Positions 19,543 through 53,608 of a stretch of 64,000 bases of DNA are shown piece by piece (position 1 is the stretch's first letter; every line of letters starts with the position of its first letter). Where the stretch lies: IMG/VR virus record IMGVR_UViG_3300031368_000001, positions 1 to 64,000 of that record, one strand, 5' to 3'. The DNA is from a virus. The notes beneath the pieces were generated by a model. It saw only the letters and a list, made by a program, of their open reading frames with translations, was not told the origin of the DNA and ran no database searches. The position numbers and the translations under genes are program-made.

Positions 19543-19679
19543 GATAAGTCACCTCCGTAACATTAAAACTGTTACAATTAATTAATAGGTTTCTCACAAT
19601 CAACATCATGGATGTGATTATGACACTAAACCTCATAGAGGCAACTTAAGCATTACTTAAGTTAAAGAAATTTTTAAAA

Positions 19680-19852
19680 CTGGCCTAATATAATTAAGCC
19701 AGTGTTAATAACAAGCTAATATTAATCAGCCAGTTAATTACAAGCTAATATTAATTAGCCAGTGTTAATTACAAGCTAATATTAATTAGCCAGTGTTAAT
19801 AACAAGCTAATATTAATCAGCCAGTGTTAATAACAAGCTAATATTAATCAGC
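19680..19852. repeat. ~31-bp tandem repeat x~5.5 between decoration and capsid genes
   Basis: agccagtgttaataacaagctaatattaat units with no spacers. Confidence 0.9.
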
Positions 19853-26935: not shown

Positions 26936-27128
26936 TTTTGCCTCTAGTTTATAAGTAAGTAGTTTATAAGTAAGTAGTTTATAAATAATTATTTTATGAT
27001 TAATACAGGTATAAATCCATTCCAACCAAATTCATAATAGGGGTATTTTTCATTTAGATCCTCTATGATGTTCCAGCGAGTTTTCAGTGAAAGATATGAT
27101 TCAAGGTAATACCGAATAATGTTCATGG

Positions 27129-27296
27129 TCAAACGTCTGGTATTTTCTCAGGATCTTTCATTATAAATTCTTTTTTGGCTTTATCGTAAGCCTCTTCTAT
27201 TTGCTTTACACTCATCCTACTTCGTTGTGCCTCTTGTAAGGCTAACATCATGAAAAATTTAACCAGCTCTGCGCCAGCCGATGCTATTGTGCTCAT
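27129..27296 (-). CDS. Small hypothetical protein (55 aa)
   Basis: GAGGT RBS; MSTIASAGAELVKFFMMLAL...KIPDV. Confidence 0.6.
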   Translation of the reverse strand: MSTIASAGAELVKFFMMLALQEAQRSRMSVKQIEEAYDKAKKEFIMKDPEKIPDV

Positions 27297-27339
27297 TACT
27301 GTCTACCTCATTAAATAAATTTTCTCGGTACGTCTTTCC

Positions 27340-27693
27340 CTAATACGTCATCCCTGCTAATTTTTCTAACAGTCCCAGTATCTTATTTTCAAGATCCAGG
27401 TTCTGCAGTCCCCCTTCTACAACTCCCAAATATATGATCATTAATTTATTAGTCTTGATCAGTAATTCTTTTTTTGCTCTAACTATTTTTTTCCCGTCTT
27501 CGGTTAAATCTCTTCTCACTGCCAGCCTCATCGTATCGTCATATTGAGCATTATACATCTCCATAAATGCTAATCCCTTCTCCTGACTACTTCGTTCACT
27601 CCAGGGCTTTATGCCTATCCCAGCACAGCCTACGAGAAAAATGGTTAGAAGCGCTAGTAAGAAAATTCTTAAGAGACTTCTATCCTTTTGCAT
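27340..27693 (-). CDS. Lipoprotein, first gene of the late region
   Basis: Lipobox FLVGC; RBS AGGAGGAG. Confidence 0.75.
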   Translation of the reverse strand: MQKDRSLLRIFLLALLTIFLVGCAGIGIKPWSERSSQEKGLAFMEMYNAQYDDTMRLAVRRDLTEDGKKIVRAKKELLIKTNKLMIIYLGVVEGGLQNLDLENKILGLLEKLAGMTY

Positions 27694-27731
27694 GATACTC
27701 CTCCTTTTTTTTGTTTATTTCACTCTTCTTT

Positions 27732-27761
27732 ACCCTAAAGAAAAATTTCAATTATTGTCAA
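27732..27761 (-). promoter_or_regulatory. Putative late promoter TTGACA-N18-TAGGGT
   Basis: Perfect -35 upstream of the first minus-strand gene; motif repeated at 23452. Confidence 0.55.
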
Positions 27762-29224
27762 GATTTATTTCTCTCAATAAAAAAATCTCCGTAACTAATT
27801 CTCACTAGCTGCGGAGTCTCTCAATAAAACCCCTCCCCATATATCCCACATCTACCTCTTATCACTTCCTCACGGCACCTCGTACACTCGTAACACGGCA
27901 GACTCTTCCTCATACTTTTCCCTTGTTTCCGTCCTAACATATCCCTCCCCTACAAGAAATATCCTCCCCTACAAGAAAATTCAAGCTCTGCGCACCTTTA
28001 TCACAATCCAAACTTTTGCACAGCCACTACCACCATCTGGGCTGGCGCAGCGACTACCATCAGAATATGGCCACTACCACCATCTAGGCTGGCGCAGCGA
28101 CTATCAAAAAACCTACCCCCTAAGCAGCCACTACTCATGTTAACACCATAACCGTAGCAACCACTGCAAAAATCACGGTCTAATAATTTCTTTACCACTA
28201 CCTAGCGCGCACAAATTACTCTGCGTACAATATCACAAATTACTCTGCGCACACTACCCTAACCAGAAATATTACTTCCCTTGTCTATTGCACTCTCTAC
28301 CCTGTCTATCAGCATATATCTCTCCCTCTACCAGGAATACTACCTTCAGTGCACTCTGTTCCTTGTGCCTGCATTGATCTTCCTTATCCCCACCACCTGG
28401 CTACCACCCCCATCCCCACCACCACTCTCGTTATACATACCACCACTCTCGTTATACATACTTTATTACTAAAACCACGGTGTTGTCTTTGAAAATGGCT
28501 CCAGTTACTGTGCAAACATAAGCTATATATGAGCATCCTGGTTTTTAAAATTTAGGGTATGGGTATTTGGGCGTCAGACCTCTTTTCTAACTCCCGTGAG
28601 TTTTTGCCCTACCATCTATTTCTTACCACTTTACTCGGCGCACCTTCTACCCTGTTCATGCAGCCATGAAAGCCAGGGCTGGCGCGGGTTGTAGAGGGAG
28701 GCTGGTTTGAGGAAGAGGGAGAGGGGAGTCTGTTTTTTCTTTTAACTCATTTTCTCGACAATTCAACTACTTTTTAAACTAGCCTCTTAATAGAGTGATT
28801 TCACTACATTTTTCAGTCCTAAAATATTTCTGGCACTTTTCCGGCCTATAAAAGTCATTCTCAGTAGTCGGTGCCCACTTTTCACTGGCCAGTGCCCTAC
28901 TTCCGGCTGAGTTTCACCTTTTTGCAGTGTTTTAATCGTGAAGCGGCTGGTACAAAGATGAATGTTGATATTCCAAAGGACCTGTACCAGGAATAGAGGC
29001 TTGGATGCTATTGGTACATGGCTGATGTATGAATTAGAAGAGATGAAGAAGACAGGAGTAAGTATAAGCATGAAATTTGTTACATCATTTCGGTAGGTTA
29101 GATAAATAAGTTAAAGTAATCCTTTAGGTATTAAAACCAACGCCATACTCTCATCCTCTCTTTTCTCTCATATCTATGCTTCTCTCATGCCAACTCTTTG
29201 AAAGGTCTATGTATCCTTTTCCTT

Positions 29225-29297
29225 GTGCAAGTATCAGGTGCAAGTATCAGGTGCAAGTATCAGGTGCAAGTATCAGATGCAAGTATCAGATGCAAGT
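29225..29297. repeat. 13-bp tandem repeat x~5.5
   Basis: tgcaagtatcagg/a units. Confidence 0.9.
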
Positions 29298-29780
29298 TCC
29301 CAGGTGCTACAAGCCAGCGCCGAGGTAAATATATATCCTATTACTTCTGCCAGCTCCGAGGAAACAAAGCCAGCCCATAGGTGCTTGCTATTCATGTACT
29401 TCTACCAGCCCTACTTGATGCCGGAGCGAAGCTGTCGCTTCGCTTTAGTCTCAGCCCCGCTCGCTTGCGGCTCGCTGTTTAGTGGATCTTATTCAATGCT
29501 TCAGCCACGAAGGAATTAAGACGCTCCTAGGGTCGCGGTTAGTAAGCGCTACTAAGCTCGAAAGGACCCGAGCAAAGTATCGCTAACAAAGGGGGTTGTT
29601 CTGCGTCCAAATTAACCAGTCGAAGAAACATGACTGGTCAATTTTCCTTATAGAGCTGTTCTACTAAGTATTAATTATTATTCGCTAACAAAGACAACAA
29701 CGAATAATAACGAATACTAAGTATCACGAACGCTCTATCAACGCCCCTTAGATCCCTTCTGGGTGAGCAACCAAGAGGCT

Positions 29781-29965
29781 ACTCGCCTGGCCACATTATA
29801 CCTAAGTCCCGCCATGTCAAGACCCAAGCCCTTCGAAACGAAGGGTTGAGGCGGCAAGTAAATCGGTTCCTTCCAAAAAAATAAACAACGCATTTTTTCG
29901 GTTCTTTCCAATTTACTTTTGCCTCAAGATCTTGAGCATAGCGGTTTAAATTATAACAAACGAGT
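29781..29965 (+). promoter_or_regulatory. Frpo-like single-stranded-DNA hairpin promoter candidate
   Basis: Complementary arms carry ATTATA/TGTCAA and TTGAGC/TATAAC; internal branched stems. Confidence 0.6.
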
Positions 29966-30124
29966 TGCAGTTATTTGAATACTGACAAAGATGTTTGTGA
30001 GAAGTCCTCTCGGTGGATTGTTAATTAAATTTTATTTTTATTAATTCTTAACATGAATTGCCTAAGGCCCGAAGCTCAAAGCTGGACGGGAGCTACACTG
30101 AGCAGTTCACGAAAGGAGGATGTT

Positions 30125-30277
30125 ATGAGATGTAAGAAATGTGGTTCAAAAAATTTAATCATTGTTAAGTCAGGCCCTCACAATAAACTTGTTTGTGCAG
30201 ATTGCCTGGCGTATCAAAAATTCCTCAGCAAAGCTGAAACTCAAACTTTTGAGCAGCTTCAAAAGAAGGAGTCCTAA
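30125..30277 (+). CDS. Zn-ribbon microprotein
   Basis: AGGAGG RBS; CKKC...CADC. Confidence 0.7.
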   Translation: MRCKKCGSKNLIIVKSGPHNKLVCADCLAYQKFLSKAETQTFEQLQKKES

Positions 30278-30469
30278 AATGTTTATATATTTCCTTGAAC
30301 AAGTCTGGGCTTATGATCAAAGAATAGACAATGAGACTCACCTTCTTCAACGACATTTCTGGGATCTTTGGCATAACAGCCCCAAATCAATTTATCCTTT
30401 TCCTTGGATGGAAGAAGGAAATGATTGGATTGATTATTAGCCTTAAAAAATTATGAAAGGAGCTACATC

Positions 30470-31621
30470 ATGAGAAACGCAGTAGATTTTAAGTACTATG
30501 ATATCACAGCAGAAGATCATTCTGCTAAGAGAGACCTGAGACCTATAGAAAATCTTGAGGATGTAATCAATCCAGGGTTTGATGAAAACGGGACTATTCT
30601 AACTGATCCACTCCCGCCACAGATCCCAAGACTGTCCCAGTCAGACAGGCAAATTTTTGAATCCTGTGCAGTTGCAGGATCTAAGATTCTCTGGCCACAT
30701 CGAAATAATAGCGGTATTCAGAAACATCTCACTGTTCAGTACATTATGAATAAGGCCAAATGCACAGTTCAAGAGGCAAATTATATTGCCGACTCCTGCG
30801 TAGCCCTGGAAGCTACAGCCAAAATAGTTGATAAATTCTGTGAGTGGGCGGTAAAGAAAGGCGCCGATAAGCTAATACAGTACTTATGGAAATTCGTTAT
30901 TGGCATTACTGAAGCTGAAGCCCCTTCAGACAAGCATGAACCATGGGAAGACGAACCGGTCACAGCAGGCGAACCATTGTGGAAAAACTCAATCGACAAG
31001 ATCAGAGGTTACAACGGAATCTGTGAAGATATAGAGATGGAACAAATTGAGGTAAAGCCGAAAGAACCAGGGTTAGCCAAAATCATCGGCGACAAAATCA
31101 TATGGCCAAAATCAAAGCTGGATTTTCTTCCTACATCACTTCCTGTTGAGGAAGACTTAACTGTGATAGAAGAGCCTGAATCTGAAACAGTTCCCAGCGC
31201 CATAGCCTACCACGTACTTGAAGACTTCAACTCAGAAGAAGAAATTCCATGGATCGACAGACAACCTGAATGGTTTATACTCCAGCTCGAAGCTTTACAG
31301 AGTTGTAAAAACCTTGAGCATCTTTCAGAGATGGGTAAAGCAGTCCATGCTATAAACAACTTTAATAGGGACCAGGCAGGAGTTTTCTGGACAGAGTATA
31401 ACTCACGGAAGCATATACTTGAGCCCAAACATCTCGGACTCACAGCTCGCAGCTTCCTCAAAAAGATTATTCAGAGCAACGGCCATATCGGAGCTCTTGG
31501 AGTATTCCTGCATAACGTACAGAGTAACAAGATAAAGGTAACTCCCGAGCCAAGTAAGCATGAGTGGGGAGTTATCTGGAAAACTTATAAGAGAAGAAAG
31601 GAGGTACATGCAAATGCCTAA
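30470..31621 (+). CDS. Hypothetical early protein (383 aa)
   Basis: Long ORF with AGGAG RBS; no motif recognised. Confidence 0.8.
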   Translation: MRNAVDFKYYDITAEDHSAKRDLRPIENLEDVINPGFDENGTILTDPLPPQIPRLSQSDRQIFESCAVAGSKILWPHRNNSGIQKHLTVQYIMNKAKCTVQEANYIADSCVALEATAKIVDKFCEWAVKKGADKLIQYLWKFVIGITEAEAPSDKHEPWEDEPVTAGEPLWKNSIDKIRGYNGICEDIEMEQIEVKPKEPGLAKIIGDKIIWPKSKLDFLPTSLPVEEDLTVIEEPESETVPSAIAYHVLEDFNSEEEIPWIDRQPEWFILQLEALQSCKNLEHLSEMGKAVHAINNFNRDQAGVFWTEYNSRKHILEPKHLGLTARSFLKKIIQSNGHIGALGVFLHNVQSNKIKVTPEPSKHEWGVIWKTYKRRKEVHANA

Positions 31622-31769
31622 AGATGAGTTAACACCAGTAGCAGCCATCAAGAGATTCTTTGAAGCAGAACCACATGGTCGGCGAGTAGACCTTGACGAG
31701 CTTAAAGCCCTGTCCGTAGATGATAGACACGAGCTCGGCAATCTTGCCAAAGAAGAGCTTGCGGCATAA
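31614..31769 (+). CDS. Small hypothetical protein
   Basis: GGAGG RBS; followed by a terminator. Confidence 0.65.
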   Translation: MPKDELTPVAAIKRFFEAEPHGRRVDLDELKALSVDDRHELGNLAKEELAA

Positions 31770-31775
31770 GCTATA

Positions 31776-31812
31776 AGGGAGAAGGTTGGTAAAATCTTCT
31801 CCCTATTTTTTT
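31776..31812 (+). terminator. Intrinsic terminator
   Basis: agggagaagg...tcttctccct followed by a T-run. Confidence 0.8.
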
Positions 31813-31834
31813 GGGCGAGAGGAGGTAATAGTTC

Positions 31835-32038
31835 ATGAGCAAGCAACTATATAGAATTGATCTAAACTGGTATGGCGAGAATCATAGATTTTTTCGGTAT
31901 GCTGTTAGTGAAAAATCCGCCTTAGCGCTAGGCATTGTAGCCCTTGCTCAAAAATTAAGTTTTCCCTGGAGAGTAGTAAATAATTACATCCGAGACGGAT
32001 TTGATCGGTACCGGGTACAGGTTGAAAGGAAAAAATAA
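31835..32038 (+). CDS. Hypothetical protein
   Basis: GGAGG RBS; coupled to the next ORF. Confidence 0.65.
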   Translation: MSKQLYRIDLNWYGENHRFFRYAVSEKSALALGIVALAQKLSFPWRVVNNYIRDGFDRYRVQVERKK

Positions 32039-52264: not shown

Positions 52265-53608
52265 TTATGAACTGAACGACTCTCTCCACACTGCATCGAA
52301 AGAGCGATACCAGACGCGGAGATGCATTTGCTTGACAGTTCTAAGTTCGTTACGAAAACCAAGGGTTCTTAATATTCGGCCTACATCCTTACGAGTAATC
52401 CTTTCTTTCTCTGCATTAGCCATATTAAGAAGAGTCTCCATACGAAGATAAATAACTTCACCATTCACCACAATTCTACTACCTATCCATTTGATATCCT
52501 TCATCACACCTTCTGAATAAACTTCTGAATTAATTAATCTTAAAATTAATCCAGTTAATGTCTCATCCATGGTAAGCTGAATAATTTCAGCTTCAGCCAA
52601 AGCTTTATTAACCATGTTTTCCCATGTTAGCTGTTTTACTGGTTTTGGAATCCTACCGGCTAGCTCACAAAATTTAATTTTAAACATGGAAAAAATAACC
52701 AATTCGTTTGTATTCATCTCAACTGATTCATCACTATGATTAGCTAAAAAAACTCTATATTTTCTTGCGCTATCGGGTGGAGGATATTTCAAAATTTGAA
52801 TTTTACTAATCTTTTCACCAACAGTTTTCCCCATTGCTTCTCGACCTTCTCGATCAGCAACTGATTTTATAGTACGTTTAATTTCTTTCCAGTCTAAAGG
52901 AGGAGTATTTCTTTCATTCCAATTCTCAAGAATTATTTCAGTTTGTGTAATATCACCATTAAAAATTCGTAAATAATAACCAGCAAGCTTGGTACAAACA
53001 GCATTTCGACTACCTTCCTTTACGCCCATAAGAGCTTCCTGTACCCAACCTTCAGGATTTTTTGAAACTCCGGTTATTCCCTGATCGGCTACAAGCTTAT
53101 CCTTAACATCACTTGGCAAATCCATAAGATCATCAAGGTCCATCTCAATAGGATCAATATCCCATTTATACTGAGTGCCATTAGGATGAATAGAAGGAGC
53201 TACTACAATATATCCTCCATCAGCACGAACATCCACATCAGGGAATAAACCAACTCTATTCTGATATTTTTGGTCTCGAGGATGTTTAAATAAAAGATGA
53301 AGAGATCCTTTTTTGCCTGTGGTTTGAGTAATAGTACCGTGAAGGTCGCCAAAGGCCGCAATATAATTCTCACGACCTATTTGTGAATCTAAATCTAATA
53401 CAATAAGATCCGAAACAAAACCAGTAACAAGACCAATATTAGCATCAGGCCATTTTTTCCACCAATGTTTTATTTGATCATCTGTTGCTTTCTCTTTTTG
53501 AAATTTTTCCCATGTTTTTAGCATAGGACTTTTTTCTCCAGGCCGAATTGGAAAAACAGACCATCCCAAACGAGCATATGCTAAAGCATACTCAGCTAAA
53601 GTTTTCAC
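52265..53608 (-). CDS. Bifunctional DNA primase/polymerase with PriCT-1 domain
   Basis: GWSVFP..K.P...WPDANIGLVTG..VLDLD...H..F...DVRADGGYIVVAPS.H; EGSRN...WN.RN.PPL. Confidence 0.9.
   Translation of the reverse strand: MKTLAEYALAYARLGWSVFPIRPGEKSPMLKTWEKFQKEKATDDQIKHWWKKWPDANIGLVTGFVSDLIVLDLDSQIGRENYIAAFGDLHGTITQTTGKKGSLHLLFKHPRDQKYQNRVGLFPDVDVRADGGYIVVAPSIHPNGTQYKWDIDPIEMDLDDLMDLPSDVKDKLVADQGITGVSKNPEGWVQEALMGVKEGSRNAVCTKLAGYYLRIFNGDITQTEIILENWNERNTPPLDWKEIKRTIKSVADREGREAMGKTVGEKISKIQILKYPPPDSARKYRVFLANHSDESVEMNTNELVIFSMFKIKFCELAGRIPKPVKQLTWENMVNKALAEAEIIQLTMDETLTGLILRLINSEVYSEGVMKDIKWIGSRIVVNGEVIYLRMETLLNMANAEKERITRKDVGRILRTLGFRNELRTVKQMHLRVWYRSFDAVWRESFSS

Follow-up and report, generated by a model that had tools for sequence, protein, structure and literature searches.

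A conserved minus-strand fold in the non-coding control region of uncultured salt-marsh phages, read tentatively as one domain of a large structured RNA

Introduction

In single-strand origins of the ssoA type, carried by rolling-circle plasmids, and in the minus-strand origin of filamentous phages, single-stranded DNA folds in an orientation-specific manner and offers a promoter-like stem on which host RNA polymerase begins a primer. Folded RNAs made by the host polymerase beside a control or origin region form another group, which includes ColE1 RNA II, the origin transcripts of T4 and T7, and the leaders of lambda nut (boxA/boxB) and HK022 put. Multi-domain RNAs of several hundred nucleotides, such as GOLLD and ROOL in Rfam, occur in phage non-coding regions; few RNAs of this size are known to us from phages, most of them without a known function. 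To our knowledge, conjugative plasmids, rolling-circle replicons and filamentous phages are the only carriers for which the single-strand promoter or ssi device has so far been established. One form of it, the Frpo/ssi single-stranded-DNA promoter, lies in the leading regions of F, ColIb-P9 and pESBL (Masai and Arai 1997, as summarized in PMC9849209, PMC11541004 and PMC12672017).

Here, we analyze a 64-kb stretch of DNA (the window), the first part of a linear IMG/VR record of 108,285 bp that is estimated to be ~77% complete; the phage DNA was recovered from salt-marsh metagenomes. A first-pass annotation had interpreted positions 29781-29965 as an Frpo-like promoter at the head of the early region. 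The fold it described is present and conserved, and it adjoins a second, larger fold on the same strand. We compare the readings that this arrangement allows.

Genomic context of the element

Judging from its portal, large terminase, major head protein and tape measure genes, the record represents an uncultured, siphovirus-like tailed dsDNA phage. Minus-strand genes from position 1 to ~27.7 kb encode the major head protein, protease-scaffold, major tail protein and tape measure, and the portal and large terminase lie on the same strand at 93-96 kb. Small plus-strand genes run from 30125 onwards. The phage encodes a Prim-Pol/PriCT primase (52265-53608), helicases and a ligase; no RNA polymerase gene was found in the record. 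Between the two gene blocks, ~27700-30124 is poor in ORFs and forms a non-coding gap of ~2.4 kb, which is the single divergence point of the genome and holds the minimum of the cumulative GC skew. Three ORFs within it were considered and rejected as genes: 28787-29071 (minus strand, 94 aa), which is not kept as a protein in locus L008, 29738-29911 (minus strand) and 29223-29519 (plus strand). A tRNA scan returned none, leaving the element without tRNA neighbours, and DnaA boxes were not enriched.

The 50-aa zinc-ribbon protein encoded by the first plus-strand gene (Table 1) is kept in L010, L011, L015, L020 and L021. It opens an operon of three genes, followed by a 53-aa and a 383-aa protein and closed by a strong terminator-like hairpin (31776-31804, plus strand, 12 bp and then a T-run). 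The 383-aa protein had no match in Foldseek or the Atlas, and its AlphaFold model reached a pLDDT of 55. In the leader of the first gene, a plus-strand hairpin at 30064-30100 covaries (AGCT/AGCT in the window, GGAC/GTCC in L015); it is not found in L007, L008, L009 or L014.

Repeats are frequent in and around the gap. A 13-bp tandem repeat, GTGCAAGTATCAG, occurs in six copies at 29225-29300 and may represent iterons or an RNA repeat; L008 is ~58 nt shorter at this spot and hence has fewer copies. The minus strand of 27700-29200 is G-rich with many local duplications of 15-40 nt, and the counterpart gap of L010 (2836-5012), 2.8 kb, carries other arrays, for example a 14-nt unit repeated six times. 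Near 27800, the minus strand shows a hairpin with a T-run and then TTGACA-18-TAGGGT ahead of the gene at 27693. Elsewhere, five to six tandem units of ~33 nt (TGATTAATATTAGCTTGTTATTAACACTGGC) lie just upstream of the major head gene (19560-19750, minus strand), and this stretch is the third most structured place in the genome.

Table 1. Positions of the element, its parts and its neighbours in the window
Feature	Position	Strand	Remarks
Domain A	29506..29800	-	Second, larger conserved fold directly downstream; nhmmer matches
GGUC(C/G)UUU hairpin module	29555-29573; also L008:1140-1184 and in P2 of L007 and L009	-	Fixed loop
Hairpin GGC-GAGUA-GCC	29777..29787	-	GCGAGTAGC invariant in 7/7
Invariant A	29788	-	Seven nt past the -10; putative start of a leftward RNA
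TATAAT	29795..29800	-	Putative -10 of a leftward promoter P2; same box as the -10 of the first-pass annotation
Domain B core	29809..29944	-	Three-way junction of helices P1, P2 and P3; ~136 nt
P1, 3' arm, GGTCTTGACATGGCGG	29809..29824	-	Contains TTGACA at 29815-29820; pairs with 29928-29944
P3, small hairpin CCCTTCG TTT CGAAGGG	29829..29845	-	Helix 5; absent from L015 and L010
P2, long arm	29846..29927	-	Helices 2-4; base TTGAGGC/GCCTCAA, helix AAGTAAATTGG/CCGATTTACTT, A/T-rich tip
Purine-rich motif, copy 2, TTGGAAGGAACCGA	29863..29876	-	P2 internal loop; direct repeat D7; relatives read TTGGGGGAACCGA
Purine-rich motif, copy 1, TTGGAAAGAACCGA	29898..29911	-	P2 internal loop; direct repeat
P1, 5' arm, CCGCTATG-C-TCAAGATC	29928..29944	-	Pairs with 29809-29824
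5' flank, P0 (ACTCG/CGAGT in the window)	29945..29965	-	Lengthens the stem towards TATAAT
Sigma-70-like site TTCAAA-18-TGtTATAAT	29950..29979	-	Passes the same test in the window only, not in homologues
Conserved block 3 (AATCCACCG..GACTTCTC..) and AT-rich block	29957..30050	.	79% identity to L010, L011, L015 and L016
First plus-strand gene	30125..30277	+	50-aa CxxC..CxxC zinc-ribbon protein; AGGAGG ribosome-binding site

Structure and strand of the fold

Folded as DNA, the minus strand of 29770-29975 is stable (-39.2 kcal/mol, z -5.6), and none of 200 shuffled sequences folded as well; the plus strand of the same interval reached -31.3 kcal/mol (z -4.1). When a 200-nt DNA fold was slid along all 108,285 bases, windows within 29551-30000 ranked first on both strands. 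The resulting structure, termed domain B, contains both of the branches that the first-pass annotation had drawn: cccttcg-aaa-cgaaggg is helix P3, and ttgaggc/gcctcaa together with aagtaaat/atttactt builds P2, whose length ranges from about 60 to 130 nt among homologues. Of the arm pairings it had proposed, tcaaga/tcttga, atg/cat and ccgc/gcgg form P1. The other two are present in the window and are not conserved as such: ttata/tataa is restricted to the window, and ACTCG/CGAGT is kept in the window, L015 and L010 only, with shifted complements in L008 and L009. Inspected by eye, all homologues show a bulge or mismatch opposite the C of TTGACA, which in the window is a bulged C.

The earlier choice of the minus strand as the folding strand holds throughout. 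It is the more stable strand in all seven homologues, the advantage of the core being 9-26 kcal/mol with RNA parameters and 2-11 kcal/mol with DNA parameters, and the element is selected as a single minus strand. The genes from 30125 lie on the plus strand and so have the folded strand as their template, and a minus-strand hairpin would, as had been argued, aim transcription rightwards into them. Frpo1 and Frpo2 of the F plasmid show a like asymmetry with DNA parameters, so strand preference does not separate an RNA from a single-stranded DNA.

Conservation and covariation of domain B

Searches of reference collections returned no relative of the element. There was no blastn match of 29100-30130 to phage GenBank records and no Rfam 15 match to 27000-32000 at E <= 1; the hairpin DNA pattern had four matches in IMG/VR, all by chance and none a homologue, and an invariant word of domain A was absent from IMG/VR and GTDB genomes. 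The 383-aa and major head proteins found none, or one distant contig, in IMG/VR. A metagenome scan with an alignment of homologues of the 383-aa protein yielded 22 loci. The non-coding DNA is kept in seven of them (L007, L008, L009, L010, L011, L014 and L015), all from one kind of habitat, and L016 keeps only the right-hand conserved block (29957-30130). L011 is a near-duplicate of L010 and was left out of most comparisons, so that counts out of seven refer to the window plus six loci. Further metagenome contigs over the stretch were strain variants of the L007/L008 type only. One low-depth contig joins 29898 to 30063, which would be a strain variant without the right half of the hairpin and conserved block 3. 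Two other loci carry large multidomain proteins: a 1071-aa protein with an ATP-dependent ligase domain and a LAGLIDADG domain (L030:5807-9022, minus strand) and a 1063-aa protein with NADAR and DprA-like domains (L029:7638-10829, minus strand).

The block at 29539-29808 retains 72-89% DNA identity, although the neighbouring 383-aa protein is only 56-87% identical. The core (29809-29956) varies in sequence and in length (109-201 nt) and keeps its helices. Because a plain MAFFT alignment misaligns the large P2 insertions, where RNAalifold fails on domain B, a covariance model (R1) was built from three sequences; it finds domain B in L007, L008, L009, L010, L014 and L015, and these six homologues were aligned to it. 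In this alignment, 27 of the 52 base pairs changed on both sides, a count reached by none of 500 shuffles (8.7 +/- 2.2 in shuffles; 4-8 in slid controls), and 95.3% of cells were paired, against 79.6% in shuffles. A model-guided alignment is fitted to structure and hence favourable to these figures; the compensatory examples picked out by eye are independent of the model.

Such examples occur in each helix. The outer part of P1 reads CCGCTATG/CATGGCGG in the window and CCGTCATG/CATGACGG in L014, and seven of the 17 pairs of this helix (helix 1) changed on both sides. At the base of P2, TTGAGGC/GCCTCAA in the window corresponds to TTGAGCC/GGCTCAA in L014 and TCGGGTC/GACCCGA in L008. In P3, all cells are paired (100%) and four of seven pairs changed on both sides: CCCTTCG/CGAAGGG in the window, TCCCTCG/CGAGGGA in L009, CTCCTCG/CGAGGAG in L008 and CCCCT/AGGGG in L007. 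All seven cores are significantly stable with DNA and RNA parameters alike (z -4 to -11). The fold, whose stability and conservation the first-pass annotation had made decisive for its proposal, is thus stable and conserved far beyond chance.

Sequence conservation within the core is highest not at the hexamers but in the P2 internal loops, where a purine-rich motif, TTGGGGGAACCGA, occurs twice (in the window as TTGGAAAGAACCGA and TTGGAAGGAACCGA); it is kept as sequence in all seven homologues and recurs in the distant L017. A promoter role offers no explanation for the two motifs.

Promoter-like hexamers

The hexamers that suggested a promoter are present in the window as reported: on the minus strand, TTGACA (29820-29815), a 14-nt spacer and TATAAT (29800-29795), or TGTCAA at 29815-29820 and ATTATA at 29795-29800 in plus-strand letters. 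TTGACA-N14-TATAAT is the sole exact match of its kind in the window. The -10 box reads TATAAT in six of the seven sequences and GATAAT in L014, with ATAAT invariant. At the -35 position, a perfect TTGACA is found in three of seven, the others having TTTACA, TTTACG, TTGTCT and TTGTTT, and the spacers measure 13, 13, 14, 14, 15, 15 and 17 nt, the standard length (16-18 nt) occurring in one sequence only. TTG or TTT is kept at this position in all seven, which would allow P1 some promoter role.

The two boxes differ in their placement. The -35 sits in duplex P1, and the pairing probability of the -10 is mostly < 0.4; only its first one to three bases are ever paired, and the last three are always open. 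In every homologue, the stem P0+P1 reaches TATAAT or stops 1-8 nt from it, with P0 built from different sequences (CCGAAACA/TGTTTCGG in L007, CTAC..GCTG/CGGCGTAG in L009, CTAA/TTAG in L014 and ATATCT/AGGTAT in L015). L007 is the most regular case, its 8-bp helix ending exactly at TATAAT and TTTACG lying 17 nt upstream. The Frpo-like interpretation is therefore borne out in its fold, strand and direction, and falls short in the constancy of the -35 and spacer, in a -10 restored as duplex and in the shape of a plain hairpin.

For comparison with plasmids, 29500-30020 was searched by blastn against 72,556 PLSDB plasmids, including F, and had no match to Frpo/ssi sequences. Applied to the F leading region, the same fold scan recovers the known hairpins at -79 to -88 kcal/mol per 300 nt, while the hexamer scan returns no boxes of 8/12 or better on F Frpo1 and Frpo2, so that hexamers say little about membership in this class. 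The early region shows no enrichment of sigma-70-like sites (43 found, 46 expected), with the reservation that the host promoter consensus may differ. Most homologues have no sigma-70-like plus-strand site between domain B and the first gene; given that no part of the early region is enriched in them, their lack here is no evidence.

Domain A and the putative leftward starts

Domain A covaries more strongly than the adjoining domain B. RNAalifold on seven sequences gave 78 pairs, of which 20 show compensatory changes and hardly any are broken, and a census of the pairs counted 482 Watson-Crick, 38 G.U, 0 A.C and 8 other. The module with the fixed GGUC(C/G)UUU loop occurs with varying stems in domain A and is reused inside P2 of L007, L008 and L009. 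Past domain A follow more covarying hairpins with GACA, GUCCA or GUUCA loops, which recur in L017. In that locus, whose 383-aa protein is 38% identical, a diverged structured region lies upstream of the first gene (L017:1-620, minus strand) and carries a UUGGGGGAGAACC motif and hairpins with GUCCA/GUUCA loops. A possible long-range contact between block 3 and the linker past TATAAT was dropped as inconsistent among homologues.

Domains B and A are linked by the near-invariant GGTATAATGCGGCCAGGCGAGTAGCC, in which TATAAT is followed by six bases, an invariant A and, at once, a hairpin. The closing pair of this GAGUA hairpin changes from G-C to C-G in L014. As a sequence pattern, TATAAT, invariant A and stem-loop fit the layout of an ordinary leftward promoter, and a leftward duplex promoter fits better than a rightward one on single-stranded DNA, because the near-invariant sequence past TATAAT opens the second covarying domain. 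At the other end, TAAAAT or TAAATT stands 7-9 nt before the AATCCACCG block in all seven homologues (by eye), and the AT-rich block beside block 3 holds a minus-strand -10-like TAAAAT at 30029-30034. Both putative minus-strand starts lack a usable -35 as well as a TGn extension. Domain A is not followed by an intrinsic terminator; a terminator-like hairpin with a T-run first appears ~2 kb downstream, near 27800.

Interpretation

Our leading reading, held tentatively, makes domain B part of a new and large structured RNA, or RNA leader, of minus sense in the 2.4-kb non-coding control region. This RNA would comprise domain B, domain A and the further hairpins, at about 29420-30020, selected on the minus strand only, with transcription running leftwards and away from the genes on the plus strand. 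Two forms are envisaged: a long one, with its start near 30020 just past the -10-like TAAAAT, would include domain B, and a short one would begin at A29788, driven by an ordinary duplex promoter that has TATAAT as its -10. TTGACA would then be a conserved piece of helix P1 and would not function as a -35 box. Both purine-rich loop motifs, like the GGUC(C/G)UUU loop, are candidate binding sites for a protein or another RNA, and the RNA might act as a regulator, a replication pre-primer or an antitermination leader.

Several features make us favour this structured RNA: it is large and multi-domain, its loops and G.U pairs are conserved, a hairpin module is reused, and conservation starts at two -10-like boxes, in both cases where an RNA would begin. 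The missing -35 and TGn elements at both putative promoters count against it, as do the unenriched sigma-70-like sites in the phage (the host consensus may differ), the missing terminator after domain A, the asymmetry shared with the DNA hairpins Frpo1 and Frpo2, and the TTG or TTT at the -35 position in 7/7. Domain B, moreover, would be RNA only if the start near 30020 is real, since P0 and P1 need sequence to the right of 29944. The public sequencing runs that contain the stretch include no RNA run.

The main rival, which we regard as possible though clearly less probable, is a replication origin at which domain B acts as a single-strand initiation signal. Melting of the AT-rich block or passage of a leftward fork would expose the minus strand, which would fold as domain B, and a rightward primer would be made by host RNA polymerase, as at Frpo/ssiD, the M13 minus origin or ssoA, or by the phage Prim-Pol primase. 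The position at the only divergence point and GC-skew minimum agrees with an origin, as do 2.4 kb of non-coding DNA with tandem repeat arrays (with different arrays in the L010 counterpart), the conserved AT-rich block adjoining domain B and the Prim-Pol/PriCT primase, for which the conserved loop motifs could serve as recognition sites. The strand-specific fold is significant with DNA parameters in 7/7 (z -4 to -11), the -35/-10-like hexamers lie on the correct arm, and the geometry at TATAAT in L007 is fork-like. Against this, the origin is itself a candidate with a deduced position, GC skew tracks gene orientation too, and there is no enrichment of DnaA boxes. Taken with domain A, the element is also far larger and more sequence-constrained than known ssi/sso signals, conserved tandem G.U pairs suit RNA better, and the near-invariant sequence of the folded strand past TATAAT would have no role. 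The fuller version of this proposal, in which a tailed dsDNA phage uses the branched minus-strand hairpin at the AT-rich block of its origin as an entry site for polymerase or primase, a single-strand promoter or ssi that fires rightwards, primes replication and possibly yields the first burst of early-gene RNA, appears to us rather unlikely.

The original idea of an Frpo-like promoter, active on single-stranded DNA only and expressing the plus-strand early genes from the folded minus strand, we consider improbable. In its favour, it has the strand and direction right, the window carries perfect hexamers with TATAAT conserved, the arms reach past the -10 via ACTCG/CGAGT in the window, L015 and L010, and most homologues lack a sigma-70-like plus-strand site ahead of the first gene, an absence that says little where none are enriched across the early region. 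It is rated low because the phage, with its portal and terminase, packages dsDNA, and we know of no stage at which 30 kb of early genes would be single-stranded in such a phage. The varying -35 hexamer and spacer, the -10 not rebuilt as duplex, the branched shape with conserved loops, the lack of similarity to plasmid Frpo/ssi sequences and a best 300-nt fold of -60 kcal/mol, against -79 to -88 kcal/mol for the F hairpins, argue in the same direction.

Least probable of all is a hairpin or cruciform extruded in supercoiled duplex, as in N4 early promoters, with the -35-like stem beside TATAAT switching on leftward promoter P2: the P0+P1 stem does end at or close to TATAAT in every homologue, the P2 tip is AT-rich and 13-17-nt spacing would be tolerable if the spacer were not B-form, but extrusion is poor for imperfect arms of 135-200 nt, selection on the minus strand only would be left unexplained by a cruciform, and no phage RNA polymerase was found.

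If the structured-RNA reading is true, the locus would define a new RNA family, at least 450 nt long, structured in several domains and more strongly conserved than the proteins beside it, which would sit at the control centre of a group of uncultured phages of about 110-140 kb from salt marshes. If the origin reading is true instead, tailed phages would join plasmids as carriers of single-strand promoters or initiation signals, and the phage origin would be marked by the element. For either, the locus offers seven aligned homologues and two candidate start sites.

Comparison with known systems

The element resembles the Frpo/ssi promoters in having a strand-specific, very stable fold in a non-coding stretch that heads a gene block, in carrying -35/-10-like hexamers on the would-be non-template arm, and in that the strand which folds also serves as template for the genes downstream. 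It differs in being branched and ~136 nt long, where Frpo/ssi elements are plain hairpins of ~300 nt, in its 13-17-nt spacer and unpaired -10, and in lacking sequence similarity to them. Its absolute energy is weaker: the best 300-nt window of the phage (GC 38%) reaches -60 kcal/mol, compared with the hairpin threshold of < -75 in PMC12672017. The carrier is a tailed dsDNA phage rather than a conjugative T-strand, and the phage element is fused to a second large conserved fold.

With ssoA-type origins and the filamentous minus-strand origin it shares an orientation-specific single-strand fold with a promoter-like stem; it differs in being larger and multi-domain, and no rolling-circle Rep gene or nick site is seen nearby. 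Compared with the ColE1, T4/T7, nut and put RNAs, it has no homology, its stem after the putative start has 3-4 bp, and no N-like protein or origin was identified; by analogy, GAGUA, a 5-nt loop of the GNRNA type on a short stem right after that start, would resemble boxB. GOLLD and ROOL differ from the element in that it has no Rfam match at E <= 1, does not lie beside tRNAs and is an RNA by prediction; like them, it spans several hundred nucleotides in several domains of a phage non-coding region, with strong covariation and conserved loops.
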